A DNA stretch of 8,174 bases from a virus (Duplodnaviria; Heunggongvirae; Uroviricota; Caudoviricetes): IMG/VR virus record IMGVR_UViG_2681813263_000010; one strand, written 5' to 3'. Numbering within the stretch: position 1 is the stretch's first letter; each line of letters opens with the position of its first letter. The notes under the pieces are model-generated. The model saw nothing but the letters and a program-made list of their open reading frames with translations. It did not search any database and had not been told where the DNA came from. Positions 146 through 8,174 of this stretch are shown here, piece after piece. Both the position numbers and the translations under genes were made by a program.

Positions 146-871
146 TCACTTTTCCGACACAATACGACCGGAGGAATCGACAATCTGTCGAACAATATCC
201 CGGTGCTTGTTCAGCTCCCGCAACGCGGCGCAGACACGCTCCCACTTCTGGACATGACTTTTCGCCCGACGCAGTTCGCGGTTTGCCATATGCAGCGATG
301 GTAAAACCAGGTCATCCGCTTGCGTTTCGGTGAACGATGGCAACGACTGCACAATGTCCGCCACAGTTTCTGTTTTAATTTCTTCCTGTGTTGCAGCTTC
401 CTGTACCGGTAACGCAACACCTGCTGGCTGAGGAAAGACTTTACCATCCGTTTCCGCTATGGATGCGGCTTTCGGCTCTGCCGGTAAATCAGCGCCCGGT
501 ATGCAGTACCGAAATTTACCGCCCTGATTCACGCGAATCAGACGCCCTTTGCTGATTGCCATGGCCAGCGATGAATTCGCCCGGCGGGAGGTAATCCCGA
601 ACATCAGTGCCAGCTCATCCGCCGTTTGTGGGCCATGTTGTTCAATCGCCTCAGTCAGCATTTGCGCTGTCACTTTCGGTACCGGTGACACTGGTTCACT
701 TTCACCAGCCTGAATCAGCCACCACATCGAACCCTTGTTATCCGCTTCACCACGGCGCTTCAGTTTCCACAGTTCGTTGACCGCATCTTCACGGCTGATT
801 CCAAGGCGGGACGCCACCACATGTGAAGAGGCTCTTTTCAGTGCTTTCAGTGCGTCAAATACAGTTTCCAT
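146..871 (-). CDS. phage hypothetical protein with two tandem HTH/winged-helix-like repeats (replication-module accessory gene)
   Basis: ORF-track 146..889 opens on TTG; the better start is ATG at 871-869 ([11 protein letters not shown]...), preceded by GGAGG about 8 nt upstream. 241 aa. Two internally similar segments (..[23 protein letters not shown].. and ..[28 protein letters not shown]..) suggest duplicated DNA-binding-like domains. Lies 21 bp downstream of the DnaC-like stop. Confidence 0.75.
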
Positions 872-892
872 TAAAACATCCTCCAACAAAAA

Positions 893-1513
893 TTACTTCA
901 CAACTCCCGGAAAGCTGACATTTGAACGCCAGCTATCCCAGTTAAACGTCACCCACCGACAACCGTTCATGGTCATGCGGTCCATAATCCTCTCACCAAG
1001 AAGCGTGCTCATTGCGGCATGATTCAGGTTTGTTAACATCCCGACACTGCACAGTGATGCTGTCCGGCGATCAATTATCTGGTGCAATACCACCTGCTCG
1101 TTTTTCGTCTCCCGCTGAATGCCTATTTCATCCAGGACCAGCAAATCAACCCCGCAAAGCTCCTGTAAAAATTTTTCACCGGATTTGCCGTTGTCGTAGC
1201 TGTCATGCAACACGCTCATGACATCAGACACGGTGACGATAATCACGCTGCGCCCCTTCGCCATCAGCCAGTTACCCATCGCCGCTGCAAGGTGATTTTT
1301 CCCGGTGCCGGTTTTACCGCTGAACACAAAATTCGTGCACCCGGTCATCAGTTCGTCAGCTATGGATTTGGCCTGGCTCAGCGCGTATTTTTGCCCGTCG
1401 TTCTGCACCTGATAATTCGCAAACGAGCATTTGCTGTGCAGAGGCTGGATGCCCGAACGATTCAGGATTTTTTCCACCCGCAACTGGCGATTCTGGCGGT
1501 TAATCTCCTCGCT
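893..1513 (-). CDS. DnaC-like replicative helicase loader (AAA+ ATPase), C-terminal 207 codons visible; 5' end masked
   Basis: Translation contains Walker A (FSGKTGTGKNHLAAAMG) and Walker B (DLLVLDEIG) in a DnaC/IstB-like context; stop at 895-893. Start lies in N-run 1514-1898. The ORF track fuses it with the upstream initiator through the N-run. Confidence 0.9.
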   Translation of the reverse strand, partial: SEEINRQNRQLRVEKILNRSGIQPLHSKCSFANYQVQNDGQKYALSQAKSIADELMTGCTNFVFSGKTGTGKNHLAAAMGNWLMAKGRSVIIVTVSDVMSVLHDSYDNGKSGEKFLQELCGVDLLVLDEIGIQRETKNEQVVLHQIIDRRTASLCSVGMLTNLNHAAMSTLLGERIMDRMTMNGCRWVTFNWDSWRSNVSFPGVVK

Positions 1514-1898
1514 NNNNNNNNNNNNNNNNNNNNNNNNNNNNNNNNNNNNNNNNNNNNNNNNNNNNNNNNNNNNNNNNNNNNNNNNNNNNNNNNNNNNNNN
1601 NNNNNNNNNNNNNNNNNNNNNNNNNNNNNNNNNNNNNNNNNNNNNNNNNNNNNNNNNNNNNNNNNNNNNNNNNNNNNNNNNNNNNNNNNNNNNNNNNNNN
1701 NNNNNNNNNNNNNNNNNNNNNNNNNNNNNNNNNNNNNNNNNNNNNNNNNNNNNNNNNNNNNNNNNNNNNNNNNNNNNNNNNNNNNNNNNNNNNNNNNNNN
1801 NNNNNNNNNNNNNNNNNNNNNNNNNNNNNNNNNNNNNNNNNNNNNNNNNNNNNNNNNNNNNNNNNNNNNNNNNNNNNNNNNNNNNNNNNNNNNNNNNN

Positions 1899-2773
1899 CG
1901 CCTCACACCATCCAGCATGGTCTCTGGTGGCACCCCCTCGCGCAATCTGGCCTTCCAGGCACTGAATGCGGATTTCTTCGGGTTTGCCCCGGCACGCAAC
2001 GGGTATTCCCGCCAGACCTGTTCGAACACATCCGGATAATCCACTCGTCCCACAGGCTGCCCGGTGTTTTCCGGGGCTACCCGATCGGCTTCCCGCTGAA
2101 TGGCGGAATCGGCTTCAGGCTGCTGCAGTTGGAGTGATTGCTCCGGCCTTGCGGTCATCACCTGCTGCACAGCGCCCGAATCGGCTTTCAGCGCATACGC
2201 TGAATCGGCTTCCGGTGTCGAGCCTGCTGGCTGACCAGGATTGACGGTCTGAACATCCCCTGCCTGGTTCGTGGCGTTTTTTACGCCATGGACCATAGTG
2301 TTTTGATCTTCTTTATCTGTATCTTTATCTGTATCTGTCGTGACTCGTCGTGACATGTGCGTGACATTTCGTGACGCGCCGTGACAATCGCCATTTTGTT
2401 CCCGCTTTCTTTCCCTCTCTCGCTGCGCCCTCTTGCGCTCTGCAGGAGATTTTGCGGTTTGCGAAATATTGCCGTTGTCCTCTTTAAGCACCTGGCGTTT
2501 TTCCCATCCAGTGATTAAATCACCATCAAGTACCCGCCCCTGCATCGTCTGCAAAATTGAATCAATTACCTCTTCTGTCACGTCGAGCGCACTTGCCAAA
2601 TCTTCTGTCGTGACATCAATGTGACCTCGCGTGACATTTCGTGACGCGCTCACCAGGAGGTGGATATACACTGCCATCACTGTTGCAATTGGCTGCCCTG
2701 ACACCCTGGCAATTGTTCGCCACTTAGGGTCATTTGGCATGTCATGCCATAATCTGAGCCAGGCGTTAGCCAT
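1899..2773 (-). CDS. phage replication initiator / replisome-organizer protein (O-like, YdaU-like); 3' end masked
   Basis: ATG at 2773-2771 (MANAWLRLWHDMPNDPKWRTIARVSG...) with SD-like AGAGGTGA upstream (track start GTG at 2779). About 290 codons visible before the N-run. Sits immediately upstream of the DnaC-like gene, as in lambdoid O-P / Rac ydaU-ydaV modules. Iteron repeats lie inside the coding sequence. Confidence 0.8.
2310..2337. repeat. AT-rich 12-bp tandem direct repeat (tctttatctgta x2 plus partial) flanking iterons; putative DNA-unwinding element
   Basis: tctttatctgta at 2310-2321 and 2322-2333, then tctg. Encodes the TDKDTDKD repeat in the initiator protein on the opposite strand. 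Confidence 0.75.
2339..2385. repeat. iteron cluster 1: five CGTGAC repeats phased at 10-11 bp (putative origin of replication)
   Basis: CGTGAC at 2339, 2349, 2360, 2370, 2380 (helical phasing), all inside the initiator gene, as for lambda ori inside O. Confidence 0.75.
2577..2649. repeat. iteron cluster 2 (GTCACG 2577; CGTGAC 2609, 2630, 2640; TGTGAC 2620) including a 21-bp exact copy of part of cluster 1
   Basis: gcgtgacatttcgtgacgcgc occurs exactly at 2359-2379 and 2629-2649; tcttctgtc occurs at 2571-2579 and 2601-2609. Confidence 0.7.
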
Positions 2774-2844
2774 ACTCACCTCTTCTGATACCGAATCTTT
2801 TTACTCACGAGTTGCCGGGAGCGATTCGATATGGCTATTGTCAG

Positions 2845-3090: not shown

Positions 3091-3718
3091 NNNNNNNNNN
3101 NNNNNNNNNNNNNNNNNNNNNNNNNNNNNNNNNNNNNNNNNNNNNNNNNNNNNNNNNNNNNNNNNNNNNNNNNNNNNNNNNNNNNNNNNNNNNNNNNNNN
3201 NNNNNNNNNNNNNNNNNNNNNNNNNNNNNNNNNNNNNNNNNNNNNNNNNNNNNNNNNNNNNNNNNNNNNNNNNNNNNNNNNNNNNNNNNNNNNNNNNNNN
3301 NNNNNNNNNNNNNNNNNNNNNNNNNNNNNNNNNNNNNNNNNNNNNNNNNNNNNNNNNNNNNNNNNNNNNNNNNNNNNNNNNNNNNNNNNNNNNNNNNNNN
3401 NNNNNNNNNNNNNNNNNNNNNNNNNNNNNNNNNNNNNNNNNNNNNNNNNNNNNNNNNNNNNNNNNAACGTAATATTTTTTCTCCTGTAAGNNNNNNNNNN
3501 NNNNNNNNNNNNNNNNNNNNNNNNNNNNNNNNNNNNNNNNNNNNNNNNNNNNNNNNNNNNNNNNNNNNNNNNNNNNNNNNNNNNNNNNNNNNNNNNNNNN
3601 NNNNNNNNNNNNNNNNNNNNNNNNNNNNNNNNNNNNNNNNNNNNNNNNNNNNNNNNNNNNNAAAAGTAAATAGTGATGCTATTTCAAAGTGATTAGCAAT
3701 CTTATTAGAATTGGATGT

Positions 3719-4219
3719 ATGAAAAGAAAATCATTGTCAGACACCGACCTCAACGCCGCCAGAAGACTGAAAGAAATCTGGATGGCAAAGAAATCTCAGT
3801 TGGGATTGACTCAGGAACGTGCGGCGGAAATTATGGGGTTTTCAACACAAGGGGCGGTAAGTCACTACCTAAATGGTCAAACCCCACTAAACCTTGAGGC
3901 TGTTCTAAAGTTTGCTGGCTTACTGAAAGTTCCCCCTGAGTCAATCAGGCCAGACATGGTAGATTTGCTGCAAATTGCAAGGATGTATTGTCGAGAACCA
4001 CAGCAAGATAACATAGTCGCATTACCAGCAGACACAGAACAAACAGAGGATGAACTACCGTTTGCCGTAGAGCCGATGGAACGAGATTTAATCCATACGT
4101 TCAGAGCTTTTCCGAAAGAAGATCAAGAACACATGCTTCAGGAGATGAAAGATAAAAAAGAATCAATGGATCGTACGGTTGCGCGGTGGTTAGCTGCACA
4201 AAAAGGCCGTCGCGCCTAA
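3719..4219 (+). CDS. HTH (XRE/Cro-CI type) transcriptional regulator, PaaR-like regulator of the three-component TA operon; candidate immunity repressor
   Basis: ATG 3719 (MKRKSLSDTDLNAARRLKEIW...), 166 aa, stop TAA 4217-4219. HTH segment LTQERAAEIMGFSTQGAVSHYLNG. C-terminal motif DLIHTFRAFPKEDQEHMLQEM resembles the DicA C-terminal region as recalled. No peptidase S24 module. Track start GTG 3689 has no SD. Confidence 0.8.
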   Translation: MKRKSLSDTDLNAARRLKEIWMAKKSQLGLTQERAAEIMGFSTQGAVSHYLNGQTPLNLEAVLKFAGLLKVPPESIRPDMVDLLQIARMYCREPQQDNIVALPADTEQTEDELPFAVEPMERDLIHTFRAFPKEDQEHMLQEMKDKKESMDRTVARWLAAQKGRRA

Positions 4220-4238: not shown

Positions 4239-4433
4239 ATGAGTACAGTCCTTTCCCCAATGGTTTCAGAATTTGAGACAGTTGAGCAAGAAAATAGTTA
4301 CAACGAATGGCTGCGGGCCAAAGTAGCAGCAAGCCTCGCGGATCCCCGCCCGGCGATTCCGCATGATGAGGTAATGGCGGAAATGGAACAAATTATTGCC
4401 CAAATTGCTGCTGCAACTCACAGAGGTGAATNN
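4239..4433 (+). CDS. paaA: PaaA-family antitoxin (64 aa; stop codon partly masked)
   Basis: SD GAGGA 4225-4229, ATG 4239. N-terminal 45 aa (..LSPMVSEFET.EQENSYNEWLRAKVA.SLADPRPAIPHDEV) matches the PaaA2 antitoxin of E. coli O157 paaR2-paaA2-parE2 as I recall it; the C-terminal 19 aa differ. In-frame codon 4431-4433 is tNN, consistent with a stop. Confidence 0.8.
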
Positions 4434-4469
4434 NNNNNNNNNNNNNNNNNNNNNNNNNNNNNNNNNNNN

Positions 4470-4587
4470 TTATGGCTACCATCTGCTCGTGATGATTTGC
4501 GCCAGATCGTAGCCTACATAGCTAAAGAAAATCCCGCGGCAGCACGCAGAATGAAAATTCGAATTGAAACATCCGTTTTGCCGCTCA
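4470..4587 (+). CDS. parE: ParE/RelE-superfamily toxin, N-terminal part visible (start in gap 4432-4469, 3' part in gap 4588-4730)
   Basis: LWLPSARDDLRQIVAYIAKENPAAARRMKIRIETSVLPL fits the ParE N-terminal helical hairpin pattern (..A..DL..I..YIA..NP.AA......L......LP). Immediately downstream of the PaaA-like antitoxin. Confidence 0.7.
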
Positions 4588-4730
4588 NNNNNNNNNNNNN
4601 NNNNNNNNNNNNNNNNNNNNNNNNNNNNNNNNNNNNNNNNNNNNNNNNNNNNNNNNNNNNNNNNNNNNNNNNNNNNNNNNNNNNNNNNNNNNNNNNNNNN
4701 NNNNNNNNNNNNNNNNNNNNNNNNNNNNNN

Positions 4731-4931
4731 GTATCCCTTTCCTGGTTGCTGACAGGAAAAGAAGATAGCAATAGAGAGACACTTGATGATGATGAGAAAG
4801 CCCTGCTTGATGTTTACAGAAATCTGCCACCTGTAGAACGCAGAAATATGCTTGCAGCTTTTCAAATGCGACTTCAAAAACTGACTGAATTTTATTCAGA
4901 ATACGTTGACCCAGCAACGCGTCAAAAATAA
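4731..4931 (+). CDS. DicA-like HTH repressor, C-terminal 66 codons (N-terminus masked, or a 3' remnant)
   Basis: VSLSWLLTGKEDSNRETLDDDEKALLDVYRNLPPVERRNMLAAFQMRLQKLTEFYSEYVDPATRQK, stop TAA 4929-4931. WLLTG is the typical end of a Cro/CI-type HTH domain; the following motif parallels DicA (..ELLELFNALPESEQDTQLAEM..) as recalled. Position upstream of ydfA-ydfB matches dicA in Qin. Confidence 0.5.
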   Translation, partial: VSLSWLLTGKEDSNRETLDDDEKALLDVYRNLPPVERRNMLAAFQMRLQKLTEFYSEYVDPATRQK

Positions 4932-5732: not shown

Positions 5733-5794
5733 GCATCTGCACCTCATAAAACGGGGGCCGGGCGTGGAAACCCGAACGTTACTCGAGCGCATAG

Positions 5795-5815
5795 CCGCGC
5801 TGAAGCGGTTTTTTT
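5795..5815 (+). terminator. weak terminator-like hairpin plus U-run (possible attenuator or sRNA 3' end)
   Basis: CCGC (5795-5798), loop GCTGAA, GCGG (5805-5808), followed by T7 (5809-5815). Only a 4-bp stem; an alternative GCGC/GCGC pairing (5787-5790 with 5797-5800) is mutually exclusive with it. Confidence 0.35.
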
Positions 5816-5984
5816 ATGCGTAATGCACAGCTCCATTCAAATTATGGTGGGATGTGCAGGGCAGTCGCAAGACTGGCCGGGTTCTCGAGTGACCGGTATT
5901 TCCACCCCTGTACGTCTCACCACCCTTATGGTCGTGGAAAACCTCGGTGGTGAGTTAATTAACTTATCACTCGAGGATGCCATC

Positions 5985-6542
5985 ATGGCTACTATCCCTG
6001 CCCTTTCTCACCCTGACGTAACCATCGAAAATGGTCGCGCTGTCACTACGTCTATTGCGATCGCAGAGTTCTTTGGCAAGCGTCACGACAATGTGTTACG
6101 TGCCATCGCAAATACTGAATGCTCACCTGAATTTAACGCCCTCAATTTTGAGGACGTCACCTACACTGACGCCAAAGGCGAAAAACGCCCGATGTACCAA
6201 ATCACCAAAAACGGCTTCGTTTTCCTGGTGATGGGATTCACTGGCAAAAAAGCCGCTGCATTCAAAGAAGCCTACATTGCTGAGTTCGACCGCATGGAGG
6301 CCGAACTGCGCCAGAATAACACCCCACCCACTGACAAAATAATTCCAGGCGATGGCCGCACCCTGGTTGTTCACTTCGACGAACGCGGCAACATCAGATT
6401 CACCGAAACCGTTCCTGATGGCGCACGGGTCTGTACCATGGAGACTTTCCGGTTTTATCTGGAAGAACAGGGATGGACTCTTGTTAACCGGGGCGCAATT
6501 AAAAATATGACTGTAGAGCAATTACTCAAAATTCATTGTTGA
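5985..6542 (+). CDS. Rha-family phage regulatory protein (185 aa)
   Basis: SD GAGGA 5972-5976, ATG 5985, stop TGA 6540-6542. N-terminal domain ..ENGRAVTTSIAIAEFFGKRHDNVLRAI...DAKGEKRPMYQITKNGFVFLVMGFTGKKAAAFKEAYIAEFDRME matches the Rha (pRha) signature. Track ORF 5688..6542 is the same frame with an upstream extension judged non-coding. Confidence 0.8.
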   Translation: MATIPALSHPDVTIENGRAVTTSIAIAEFFGKRHDNVLRAIANTECSPEFNALNFEDVTYTDAKGEKRPMYQITKNGFVFLVMGFTGKKAAAFKEAYIAEFDRMEAELRQNNTPPTDKIIPGDGRTLVVHFDERGNIRFTETVPDGARVCTMETFRFYLEEQGWTLVNRGAIKNMTVEQLLKIHC

Positions 6543-6552
6543 GGACGCGATA

Positions 6553-6741
6553 ATGGAAACGTTATTACCAAACGTTAATACGACTGAAGGTTGTTTTGAA
6601 ATTGGTGTCACTATCAGTAACACGGTATTTACTGAAGATGCCATTAACAAGAGAAAACACGAACGGGAGCTATTAAATAAAATATGCATTGTTTCAATGC
6701 TGGCTCGTTTGCGTCTGATGCAAAAAGGATGCTGGCGATGA
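6553..6741 (+). CDS. dicB: DicB cell-division inhibitor (62 aa)
   Basis: SD GAGGA 6541-6545, ATG 6553, stop TGA 6739-6741. METLLPNVNTTEGCFEIGVTISNTVFTEDAINKRKHERELLNKICIVSMLARLRLMQKGCWR, near-identical in pattern to K-12 DicB as recalled. Confidence 0.9.
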   Translation: METLLPNVNTTEGCFEIGVTISNTVFTEDAINKRKHERELLNKICIVSMLARLRLMQKGCWR

Positions 6742-6929
6742 ATACAGCATTTGCACTCGTTCTGACCGTTATTCTTAATACGGGCGAACCAGCTGAACTG
6801 GTTACCGGAGTATACAACTCCATGAAAGAATGCGTGGCTGCTGCAGCTGAACAGAAAATTCCCGGTAACTGTTATCCGGTTGATAAAATCATTCACCAGG
6901 ATAATAAAGAAGTCCCGGCAGGTCTTTAA
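6738..6929 (+). CDS. ydfD: YdfD-like small protein (63 aa; family reported as lysis-associated)
   Basis: ATG 6738-6740 overlaps the dicB stop (ATGA); SD AAGGA 6724-6728; stop TAA 6927-6929. MNTAFALVLTVILNTGEPAELVTGVYNSMKECVAAAAEQKIPGNCYPVDKIIHQDNKEVPAGL. Hydrophobic N-terminal segment. Confidence 0.85.
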   Translation: MNTAFALVLTVILNTGEPAELVTGVYNSMKECVAAAAEQKIPGNCYPVDKIIHQDNKEVPAGL

Positions 6930-7228
6930 AGCANNNNNNNNNNNNNNNNNNNNNNNNNNNNNNNNNNNNNNNNNNNNNNNNNNNNNNNNNNNNNNNNNNN
7001 NNNNNNNNNNNNNNNNNNNNNNNNNNNNNNNNNNNNNNNNNNNNNNNNNNNNNNNNNNNNNNNNNNNNNNNNNNNNNNNNNNNNNNNNNNNNNNNNNNNN
7101 NNNNNNNNNNNNNNNNNNNNNNNNNNNNNNNNNNNNNNNNNNNNNNNNNNNNNNNNNNNNNNNNNNNNNNNNNNNNNNNNNNNNNNNNNNNNNNNNNNNN
7201 NNNNNNNNNNNNNNNNNNNNNNNNNNNN

Positions 7229-8145
7229 CGGCTGCTCAGGACTGCGCTTATAAATTTATTGTCTGCGAGGATAAACCTGGTATACCCCGCCCTGCCCTCG
7301 ATTCCTGGGATGCTGAATATATGCAGGAAAACCGCTGGGATGAGGAGTCTGCTTCCTTTGTCCCGGTTGAGACTGAATCCGAACCGATGAACGTCACTTT
7401 TGACAAGCTGGCCCCTGAAGTACAGAACGCTGTCATGGTTAAGTTCGACACATGTGAAAACATCACCGTTGATATGGTGATTAGCGCGCAGGAACTGTTG
7501 CAGGAAGACATGGCAACATTCGACGGACATATCGTTGAAGCGTTGATGAAAATGCCAGAAGTTAACGCCATGTGTCCGGAGATTAAACTGCATGCCATCG
7601 GGTGGATTAAGCATAAATGTAAGCCTGGTGCAAAATGGCCAGAAATTCAGGCAGAGATGCGCATCTGGAAAAAATGTCGCGAAGGTGAACGCAAGGAAAC
7701 CGGAAAATACACGTCTGTTGTTGATCTCGCCCGTGCCAGAGCCAATCAACAGCACACTGAAAATTCAACAGGAAAAATCAGCCCGGCCATTGCTGCCATT
7801 CATCGCGAATACAAGCAGACATGGAAAACACTGGATGACGAACTGGCCTACGCTCTCTGGCCTGGTGATGTGGATGCCGGAAACATTGACGGCAGCATCC
7901 ATCGCTGGGCAAAAAATGAAGTTATCGACAACGACCGCGAAGACTGGAAGCGTATCTCGGCATCAATGCGCAAACAGCCTGATGCCCTTCGCTACGACCG
8001 CCAGACTATTTTTGGCCTTGTCCGTGAACGTCCGATCGACATTCACAAAGACCCTGTGGCACTGAACAAATACATTACTGAATACCTGACTACAAAGGGC
8101 GTGTTTGAAGATGAAGGAACAAATCAGAGCGCAACTGATACTTGA
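7229..8145 (+). CDS. hypothetical prophage protein, C-terminal ~305 codons visible (5' end masked); YdfE-position gene
   Basis: Long stop-free frame from the gap edge to TGA 8143-8145 (..AAQDCAYKFIVCEDKPGIPRP...EYLTTKGVFEDEGTNQSATDT). Antisense ORFs over the same span are N-run artefacts or shorter. No family recognised. Confidence 0.6.
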
Positions 8146-8174
8146 GGTGTACTGGCAATAGCGGACACTACCAT

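Follow-up and report, generated by a model that had tools for sequence, protein, structure and literature searches.

The open reading frame at the right end of the analysed stretch of viral DNA (8,174 nt; the window) is very probably the 5' remnant of a ydfE-type prophage exonuclease gene, reduced to codons 1-353 and made a pseudogene by truncation with IS600. The remnant is the front 43% of the gene. In a preliminary description the frame had been presented as an uncharacterised stand-alone protein. This view was abandoned, as the frame comprises the N-terminal 353 codons of a gene for an exonuclease of 816-823 residues, cut by IS600. A confident match to a named family was found at the level of family identity (exonuclease, YdfE_N, YdfE_C); the N-terminal region itself is still functionally uncharacterised.

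Reading frame and operon context

The frame lies on the plus strand and extends without interruption from 7229, the first base after the mask, to the TGA codon at 8143-8145; its first full codon is at 7231. Its visible part consists of 304 full codons (7231-8142) and contains no further lesion. The initial count was at least 305 residues behind a masked 5' end; the frame and the mask are real, and the count is corrected to 304. The 3' end, which had been taken as natural, is artificial, as the stop codon belongs to IS600. The frame is a genuine coding sequence and not a chance one, since it matches PHROG 2082 with E 1e-232 and the Shigella sonnei protein P0267 exactly.

The genes dicB and ydfD had been placed upstream of the frame, and Pfam confirmed both. 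The order dicB, DUF1482, exonuclease is identical in the loci L001, L003, L005 and L015. The frame is the distal end of the early-left (dicB) operon, in agreement with the suggestion that it occupies an accessory or recombination gene position of lambdoid phages. In Escherichia coli K-12 the polycistronic unit has been described as ydfABC-dicF-dicB-ydfDE (bioRxiv 10.1101/2023.04.14.536235). Once the repressor is lifted, transcription from the early-left promoter under its control would cover the remnant together with dicB-ydfD. The features of the region are as follows.

6553-6741, plus strand: dicB (cell-division inhibitor), same early-left operon; Pfam DicB PF05358, E 6.6e-38, covering 1-60 of 62
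6738-6929, plus strand: ydfD-like DUF1482 gene directly upstream of the exonuclease frame; Pfam PF07358, E 2.9e-21
6935-7228, plus strand: masked stretch, expected from homology to P0267/P0001 to hold the ydfD-exonuclease spacer, the start codon and codons 1-49 (MSKVFICAAIPDE...HYP)
7231-8142, plus strand: codons 50-353 of the truncated ydfE-type exonuclease gene, non-catalytic N-terminal region; PHROG 2082, P0267, P0273

The masked N-terminus had been estimated at up to about 98 codons. Homology reduces this number to 49, with the visible residues beginning at residue 50. The masked interval upstream of the frame exceeds its counterpart in S. sonnei 53G (L015) by 61 nt, the sequences being otherwise 100% identical (99.9-100% outside the masks in the comparison of mask lengths). 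Each of the masks at 1514-1898, 3091-3661, 4432-4469 and 6934-7228 is 25-77 nt longer than the matching 53G interval. Mask lengths differ from the true sequence lengths, and thus the start codon cannot be placed from them. Provided that the padding lies upstream of the start, the start codon would be near 7084, which is an estimate. Codons 1-49 are probably intact, to judge from the identical S. sonnei genomes, with the start codon and the ribosome-binding site under the mask.

The intact exonuclease and its relatives

The match to PHROG 2082 ('exonuclease') covers only profile positions 50-353 of 823, which leaves about 49 residues in the mask and about 470 residues absent at the C-terminus. 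The frame is therefore a fragment of a family member and not a complete member. The E. coli protein P0273 (WP_074132287.1, 816 residues), whose residues 50-353 are identical to those of the window, shows directly that a longer protein begins with the remnant. The intact representative P0121 is 97% identical over residues 50-353. The protein search also found a 353-residue 'exonuclease [Shigella sonnei]' (P0001) with one mismatch to the visible residues; another protein of its cluster, P0267 (353 residues), occurs on 86 contigs, including complete chromosomes, and matches the visible residues exactly.

When the DNA was compared with phage records by megablast, the same sequence was observed in mEp460_ev081, Tritos, PhiR42_1 and 'PPompW' prophages of Stx-converting strains. 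In all these records it makes up the 5' portion of a gene whose annotation reads exonuclease, exonuclease VIII or exodeoxyribonuclease. The gene of mEp460_ev081 encodes 823 residues (VUF53467.1, 'exodeoxyribonuclease encoded by cryptic prophage CP-933P') and stands in the order dicB, DUF1482, exonuclease, excisionase, integrase; the order around the intact gene is dicB, ydfD, exonuclease, xis, int. The sequence match is present in 4435 of 5426 complete E. coli genomes, and the RefSeq label on equivalent loci is 'exonuclease; incomplete; missing C-terminus'. A single-protein scan for related loci produced seven, six from Escherichia/Shigella and one from a metagenome-assembled genome labelled Proteobacteria, and a full-library HMMER search produced only 168 cluster representatives.

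Intact homologues contain a single Pfam domain, the Rv2179c-like 3'-5' exoribonuclease (PF16473, DEDD/DnaQ superfamily), at residues 637-809 and 642-813 (E 3e-67), together with a weak RNase_T match. A PDB sequence search with an intact homologue matched only the DEDD domain. The Rv2179c-like domain is absent from the window frame (Pfam scan) and from the 9 kb downstream in the identical S. sonnei loci. No other catalytic domain is recognisable in the intact protein, and this one lies past the break. The intact protein has three parts: a non-catalytic N-terminal region of three predicted domains (YdfE_N, YdfE_C and a helical module common to RecE), a RecE-like middle, and a C-terminal Rv2179c-like DEDD 3'-5' exonuclease domain. 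The intact exonuclease of 816-823 residues (PHROG 2082) is the same gene as the window frame and has the same neighbours; unlike it, the window copy has lost residues 354 to the end, that is, the RecE-like middle with its CxxC...CxxC segment and the DEDD domain.

The Pfam scan of the fragment found no domain because the scanned version lacked the models PF27430 and PF27432, and this is no sign of an absent family. The earlier statement that no motif could be assigned holds for that version, whereas PHROGs, NCBIfam and the newer precomputed Pfam labels do place the frame. These labels, used as precomputed, are PF27430 YdfE_N and PF27432 YdfE_C, both for the S. sonnei protein itself (P0001, P0267) and for almost every close homologue. 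Membership in the YdfE family is seen from the labels, from synteny (dicB, ydfD, ydfE) and from identity, residues 1-257 of the 353-residue protein being 95% identical to K-12 YdfE.

In MG1655, ydfE (b1577) is annotated as a Qin-prophage pseudogene interrupted by IS2E and followed by the pseudogenes insD7 and intQ. The K-12 gene, after which YdfE_N and YdfE_C on the window's protein are named, is similar to the window frame in its position, in its truncation by an insertion sequence and in the prophage-end decay behind it. The exact outcome is different: K-12 ydfE is interrupted by IS2E at codon 257 and continues through codons of the IS to a nominal length of 306 residues, whereas the window gene is cut by IS600 at codon 353 and terminates at once with TGA.

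Several phage and GenBank records call the intact homologue 'exonuclease VIII' or 'exodeoxyribonuclease VIII'. If this were correct, the frame would encode the N-terminal portion of RecE, which is the 5'-3' exonuclease for recombination in the RecET module, a reading to which we assign practically no probability. The fragment does match NCBIfam PRK09709 (residues 196-293, gene 245-342, to profile 270-368; E 5e-13), and in a BLASTP comparison with Rac RecE, residues 262-621 of the intact homologue are 36% identical to RecE 278-592 (E 2e-52). This alignment contains a well-conserved DKLLAASRGEFV.GISDPNDPKWV motif and the CxxC...CxxC segment. However, by BLASTP neither the first 261 residues nor the nuclease domains are related to RecE. 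Against the NCBIfam RecE equivalog NF007259 the fragment scores 48 bits and the intact homologue 254.7 bits, far below the cut-off of 1269. At its C-terminus the intact protein has a DEDD 3'-5' exonuclease domain in place of the PD-(D/E)XK nuclease of RecE; the latter domain (PF12684/PF06630) was looked for in intact homologues and not found. An adjacent recT was likewise looked for and not found: the neighbours of the intact exonuclease are xis and int, whereas Rac has recE-recT. The identification as RecE was rejected because of the sub-cut-off NCBIfam score, the type of the nuclease domain and the missing recT, and the label 'exonuclease VIII' is thus an annotation by partial similarity.

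RecE of Rac and the ydfE-type exonuclease resemble each other as large prophage nucleases of the early-left operon with a long N-terminal region and the shared stretch 262-621/278-592. RecE is a PD-(D/E)XK 5'-3' nuclease paired with RecT, whereas the ydfE-type family is of the DEDD 3'-5' type and has no adjacent annealase. The long N-terminal region of RecE has no known function (PMC11611040). An accessory, targeting or interaction role has been proposed for this dispensable region, and by analogy the N-terminal modules of the intact ydfE-type protein may have an accessory, targeting or partner-interaction role for its nuclease. Lambdoid phages have been reported to carry sporadic DnaQ-type nuclease genes near int, as well as nuclease-less 'RecE-2' proteins (Genome Res 2025, PMC12315714), and both fit the position and the mosaic make-up of the ydfE-type gene. 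The ydfE-type gene, which is unnamed in that paper, may be of this DnaQ-type or 'RecE-2' kind.

The mosaic make-up is also seen among 39 diverse representatives of the family, where Pfam recognised seven Exonuc_VIII, five PD-(D/E)XK DUF3799 and three Rv2179c-like domains, and nothing in most; at least 24 of the 39 aligned homologues have no Pfam match at all. Module-wise phmmer searches demonstrated that the N-terminal pieces occur in many combinations.

The IS600 junction and the fate of the 3' part

Aligned with intact copies, window positions 8040-8174 are identical to them up to ...GCAACTGATACT (GATACT) and then read TGAGGTGTACTGGCAATAGCGGACACTACCAT. The intact genes continue with CTCTCGTCGCCAG... 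at the point where the window enters IS600.

8143-8174, plus strand: terminal inverted repeat of IS600 (IS3 family), the end downstream of orfB; identity to annotated IS600 ends

The element is oriented with its transposase genes on the minus strand, and the stop codon of the frame, TGA at 8143-8145, is the first three bases of IS600. These 32 bases also terminate an element with the annotation 'IS3-like element IS600 family transposase' in E. coli 2013C-4830 (L002), E. coli 20.1 (L005) and S. sonnei 53G (L015). The element is 1264 bp long and has the ends TGAGGTGTACTGGCAATAGCGGACAC and GTGTCCGTTAAACTCAGGCTACCTCA. Its terminal repeats were read directly from the sequence; an inverted-repeat finder applied to an IS600 copy did not report these imperfect repeats. 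A terminal repeat, an element of about 1.26 kb with orfA and orfB, and a 3-bp duplication identify the insertion, of which the window itself holds 32 nt only. E. coli 20.1 shows IS600 as a simple insertion, with ACT duplicated as the 3-bp target; behind the element come the remaining 3' codons of the gene (about 470), then xis, int and ompW. In the window gene IS600 has inserted after codon 353, and its terminal TGA closes the frame.

IS600 occupies the identical nucleotide (window 8140-8145; L005 9056-9061) in S. sonnei, E. coli 20.1 and RM6927. The flank in E. coli 20.1 is only 91% identical to the window despite the same insertion site. In E. coli 2013C-4830 (L002, around 4915-4920) and 2012C-4227 the element is shifted by 2 bp. 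Either the site is a hot spot for insertion, or a single old insertion has been spread by recombination. That IS600 insertions in this gene fall within the same 2 bp in different backgrounds is of modest value as an observation. A scan of genome contigs for exact matches to the 38-nt exonuclease/IS600 junction gave none.

The window from 7229 to 8174 is 100% identical to S. sonnei 53G (HE616528.1) and to CP044151.1, and the sequence past 8174 is probably the same as in these genomes. In 53G, IS600 is followed by a 5'-truncated molybdopterin oxidoreductase gene and then by ynfG/H-type genes, with no target duplication; the C-terminal part of the exonuclease was not found within 9 kb by tblastn. 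In CP044151.1 the element is followed by a fragment with a BenE domain, unlike 53G. These far sides indicate that S. sonnei has lost, by deletion or rearrangement, the 3' two-thirds of the gene together with the prophage end that carries xis and int. The loss probably followed the insertion and was due to an IS600-associated deletion. The 53G locus also has two copies of IS1 that flank the gene with the Rha domain, and one of these copies lies directly upstream of dicB; neither is present in the window.

Given the IS600 cut and the deletion, the locus encodes at most a 353-residue protein without the nuclease domain. Any such product would have no nuclease-dependent function, and the remnant is a pseudogene in a decaying Qin-like prophage, parallel to K-12 ydfE. 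The locus is a routinely annotated pseudogene and in this sense already known. IS-driven prophage decay in S. sonnei is well documented. The case for a discovery is correspondingly small, with both the pseudogene and the decay on record.

The N-terminal region

A structure of the fragment was predicted by AlphaFold2 from the alignment of 39 sequences. The model has a mean pLDDT of 86 and three confident domains; its low pTM of 0.41 fits flexibly linked modules.

7231-7383, plus strand: visible half of predicted domain 1 (residues 1-100), small alpha/beta; AlphaFold2
7396-7698, plus strand: predicted domain 2 (residues ~105-205), all-helical; AlphaFold2 pLDDT 90-97
7699-7818, plus strand: linker (residues ~206-245), predicted to be flexible; pLDDT 43-63, lowest alignment occupancy
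7819-8103, plus strand: predicted domain 3 (residues ~246-340), helical; pLDDT 88-95

From residue 262 (window 7867) domain 3 is the start of the region homologous to the non-catalytic middle of RecE. A Foldseek search of the model against PDB and BFVD gave no match at E <= 0.001, and a PDB sequence search with the fragment gave none either. The impression that the visible part has no recognisable fold was thus borne out: the three predicted domains match no solved structure. Anti-phage defence was considered as well and rejected, since PADLOC found no defence-system match for the 353-residue protein; for the intact homologue it gave only a marginal generic DEDDh match (E 3.7e-4).

The cysteine-containing peptides of the fragment had been noted as possibly metal-binding. 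The peptides DCAYKFIVCED, MCPEIK, HKCKPG and KKCRE are indeed present, and P0001 has seven cysteines in 353 residues, some of them in pairs 7-20 residues apart. However, it is hardly credible that the frame encodes a cysteine-based, zinc-finger-like accessory protein, as the cysteines are not conserved. In the alignment of 39 homologues the best cysteine columns are kept in 12, C164 is replaced by Y in 17, and at C198 most proteins have T, R or D. Even intact proteins with 96-97% identity have Y164 and R198. In addition, the cysteines are spread over different predicted domains. The zinc-binding or zinc-finger reading was rejected since the Cys/His ligand set is not conserved.

The intact homologue encoded at L003 3856-6315 has a segment CNxCGxxGGxxCPDCGxVMG (CxxC...CxxC, zinc-ribbon-like) at residues ~550-565, conserved in Rac RecE at ~518-536. 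This segment is in the region deleted from the window copy, and thus a plausible metal site of the family lies outside the examined fragment.

One possibility is that the truncated 353-residue product is still functional, its N-terminal modules binding a host or phage partner without the nuclease, so that the gene would be domesticated rather than dead. The frame is clean over the 304 visible codons, the three domains are predicted with high confidence, and two different IS elements, IS2 in K-12 and IS600 here, have taken the C-terminus and left at least 257 N-terminal codons. Residual activity is conceivable also because many relatives with the N-terminal modules have no detected nuclease domain, the modules occurring in many combinations that include the 'RecE-2' proteins (PMC12315714). 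Finally, the gene belongs to the dicB operon and is transcribed when the repressor is lifted (bioRxiv 10.1101/2023.04.14.536235). On the other hand, it is by chance that the end of the IS supplies a stop codon, and the K-12 remnant breaks elsewhere, at codon 257, inside the start of domain 3 of the window's protein. S. sonnei is a young clone, rich in IS600. In such a clone an intact remnant frame is uninformative about selection. No phenotype of ydfE is reported in the literature searched, where no experiments on the function of the ydfE-type exonuclease family were found either, and PADLOC is negative. Thus we consider a functional product improbable, and prefer the interpretation of the frame as an IS600-truncated pseudogene.

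A more general version of this idea is that the N-terminal modules (YdfE_N, YdfE_C and the RecE-like helical module) form an autonomous, structurally new unit, and that both the truncated product and K-12 YdfE keep a nuclease-independent activity selected in cryptic prophages. This prediction, too, is a doubtful one, about as improbable as domestication of the window copy. If it were true, cryptic prophages would discard a possibly harmful 3'-5' exonuclease and keep the N-terminal activity. Of modest value apart from this is that the N-terminal region of a widespread family has no known function or recognisable fold, as with the N-terminal region of RecE.

Upstream of dicB, the window contains candidate RNAs similar to Rfam isrK (59.6 bits) and C4 antisense RNA (76.7 bits) at 5739-5815 and 5840-5927, both on the plus strand and directly upstream of a frame with the Phage_pRha domain (5991-6542, plus strand). 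The cluster looks like an antirepressor module of the P1 c4/ant or Gifsy isrK type. It lies between ydfA-like genes and dicB, where Qin of K-12 carries DicF; in the window DicF gave no match at threshold.

In the prophage immunity region, an HTH regulator (3689-4219, plus strand) is followed by a PaaA2 antitoxin (4239-4430, plus strand; PF21217, E 3e-23), and the segment runs on under the masks near 4431-4770. The identical locus of S. sonnei has a ParE toxin after PaaA2, and the three genes are a toxin-antitoxin module of the paaR2-paaA2-parE2 type. At the left end, a DUF1627 protein (146-889, minus strand; E 3.9e-93) adjoins a frame at 893-2779 (minus strand) that runs across a mask. The latter frame consists of two replication genes, one for an IstB/DnaC-like ATPase (896-1495) and one for a protein of 354 residues with no Pfam match, which are separate in S. 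sonnei 53G.
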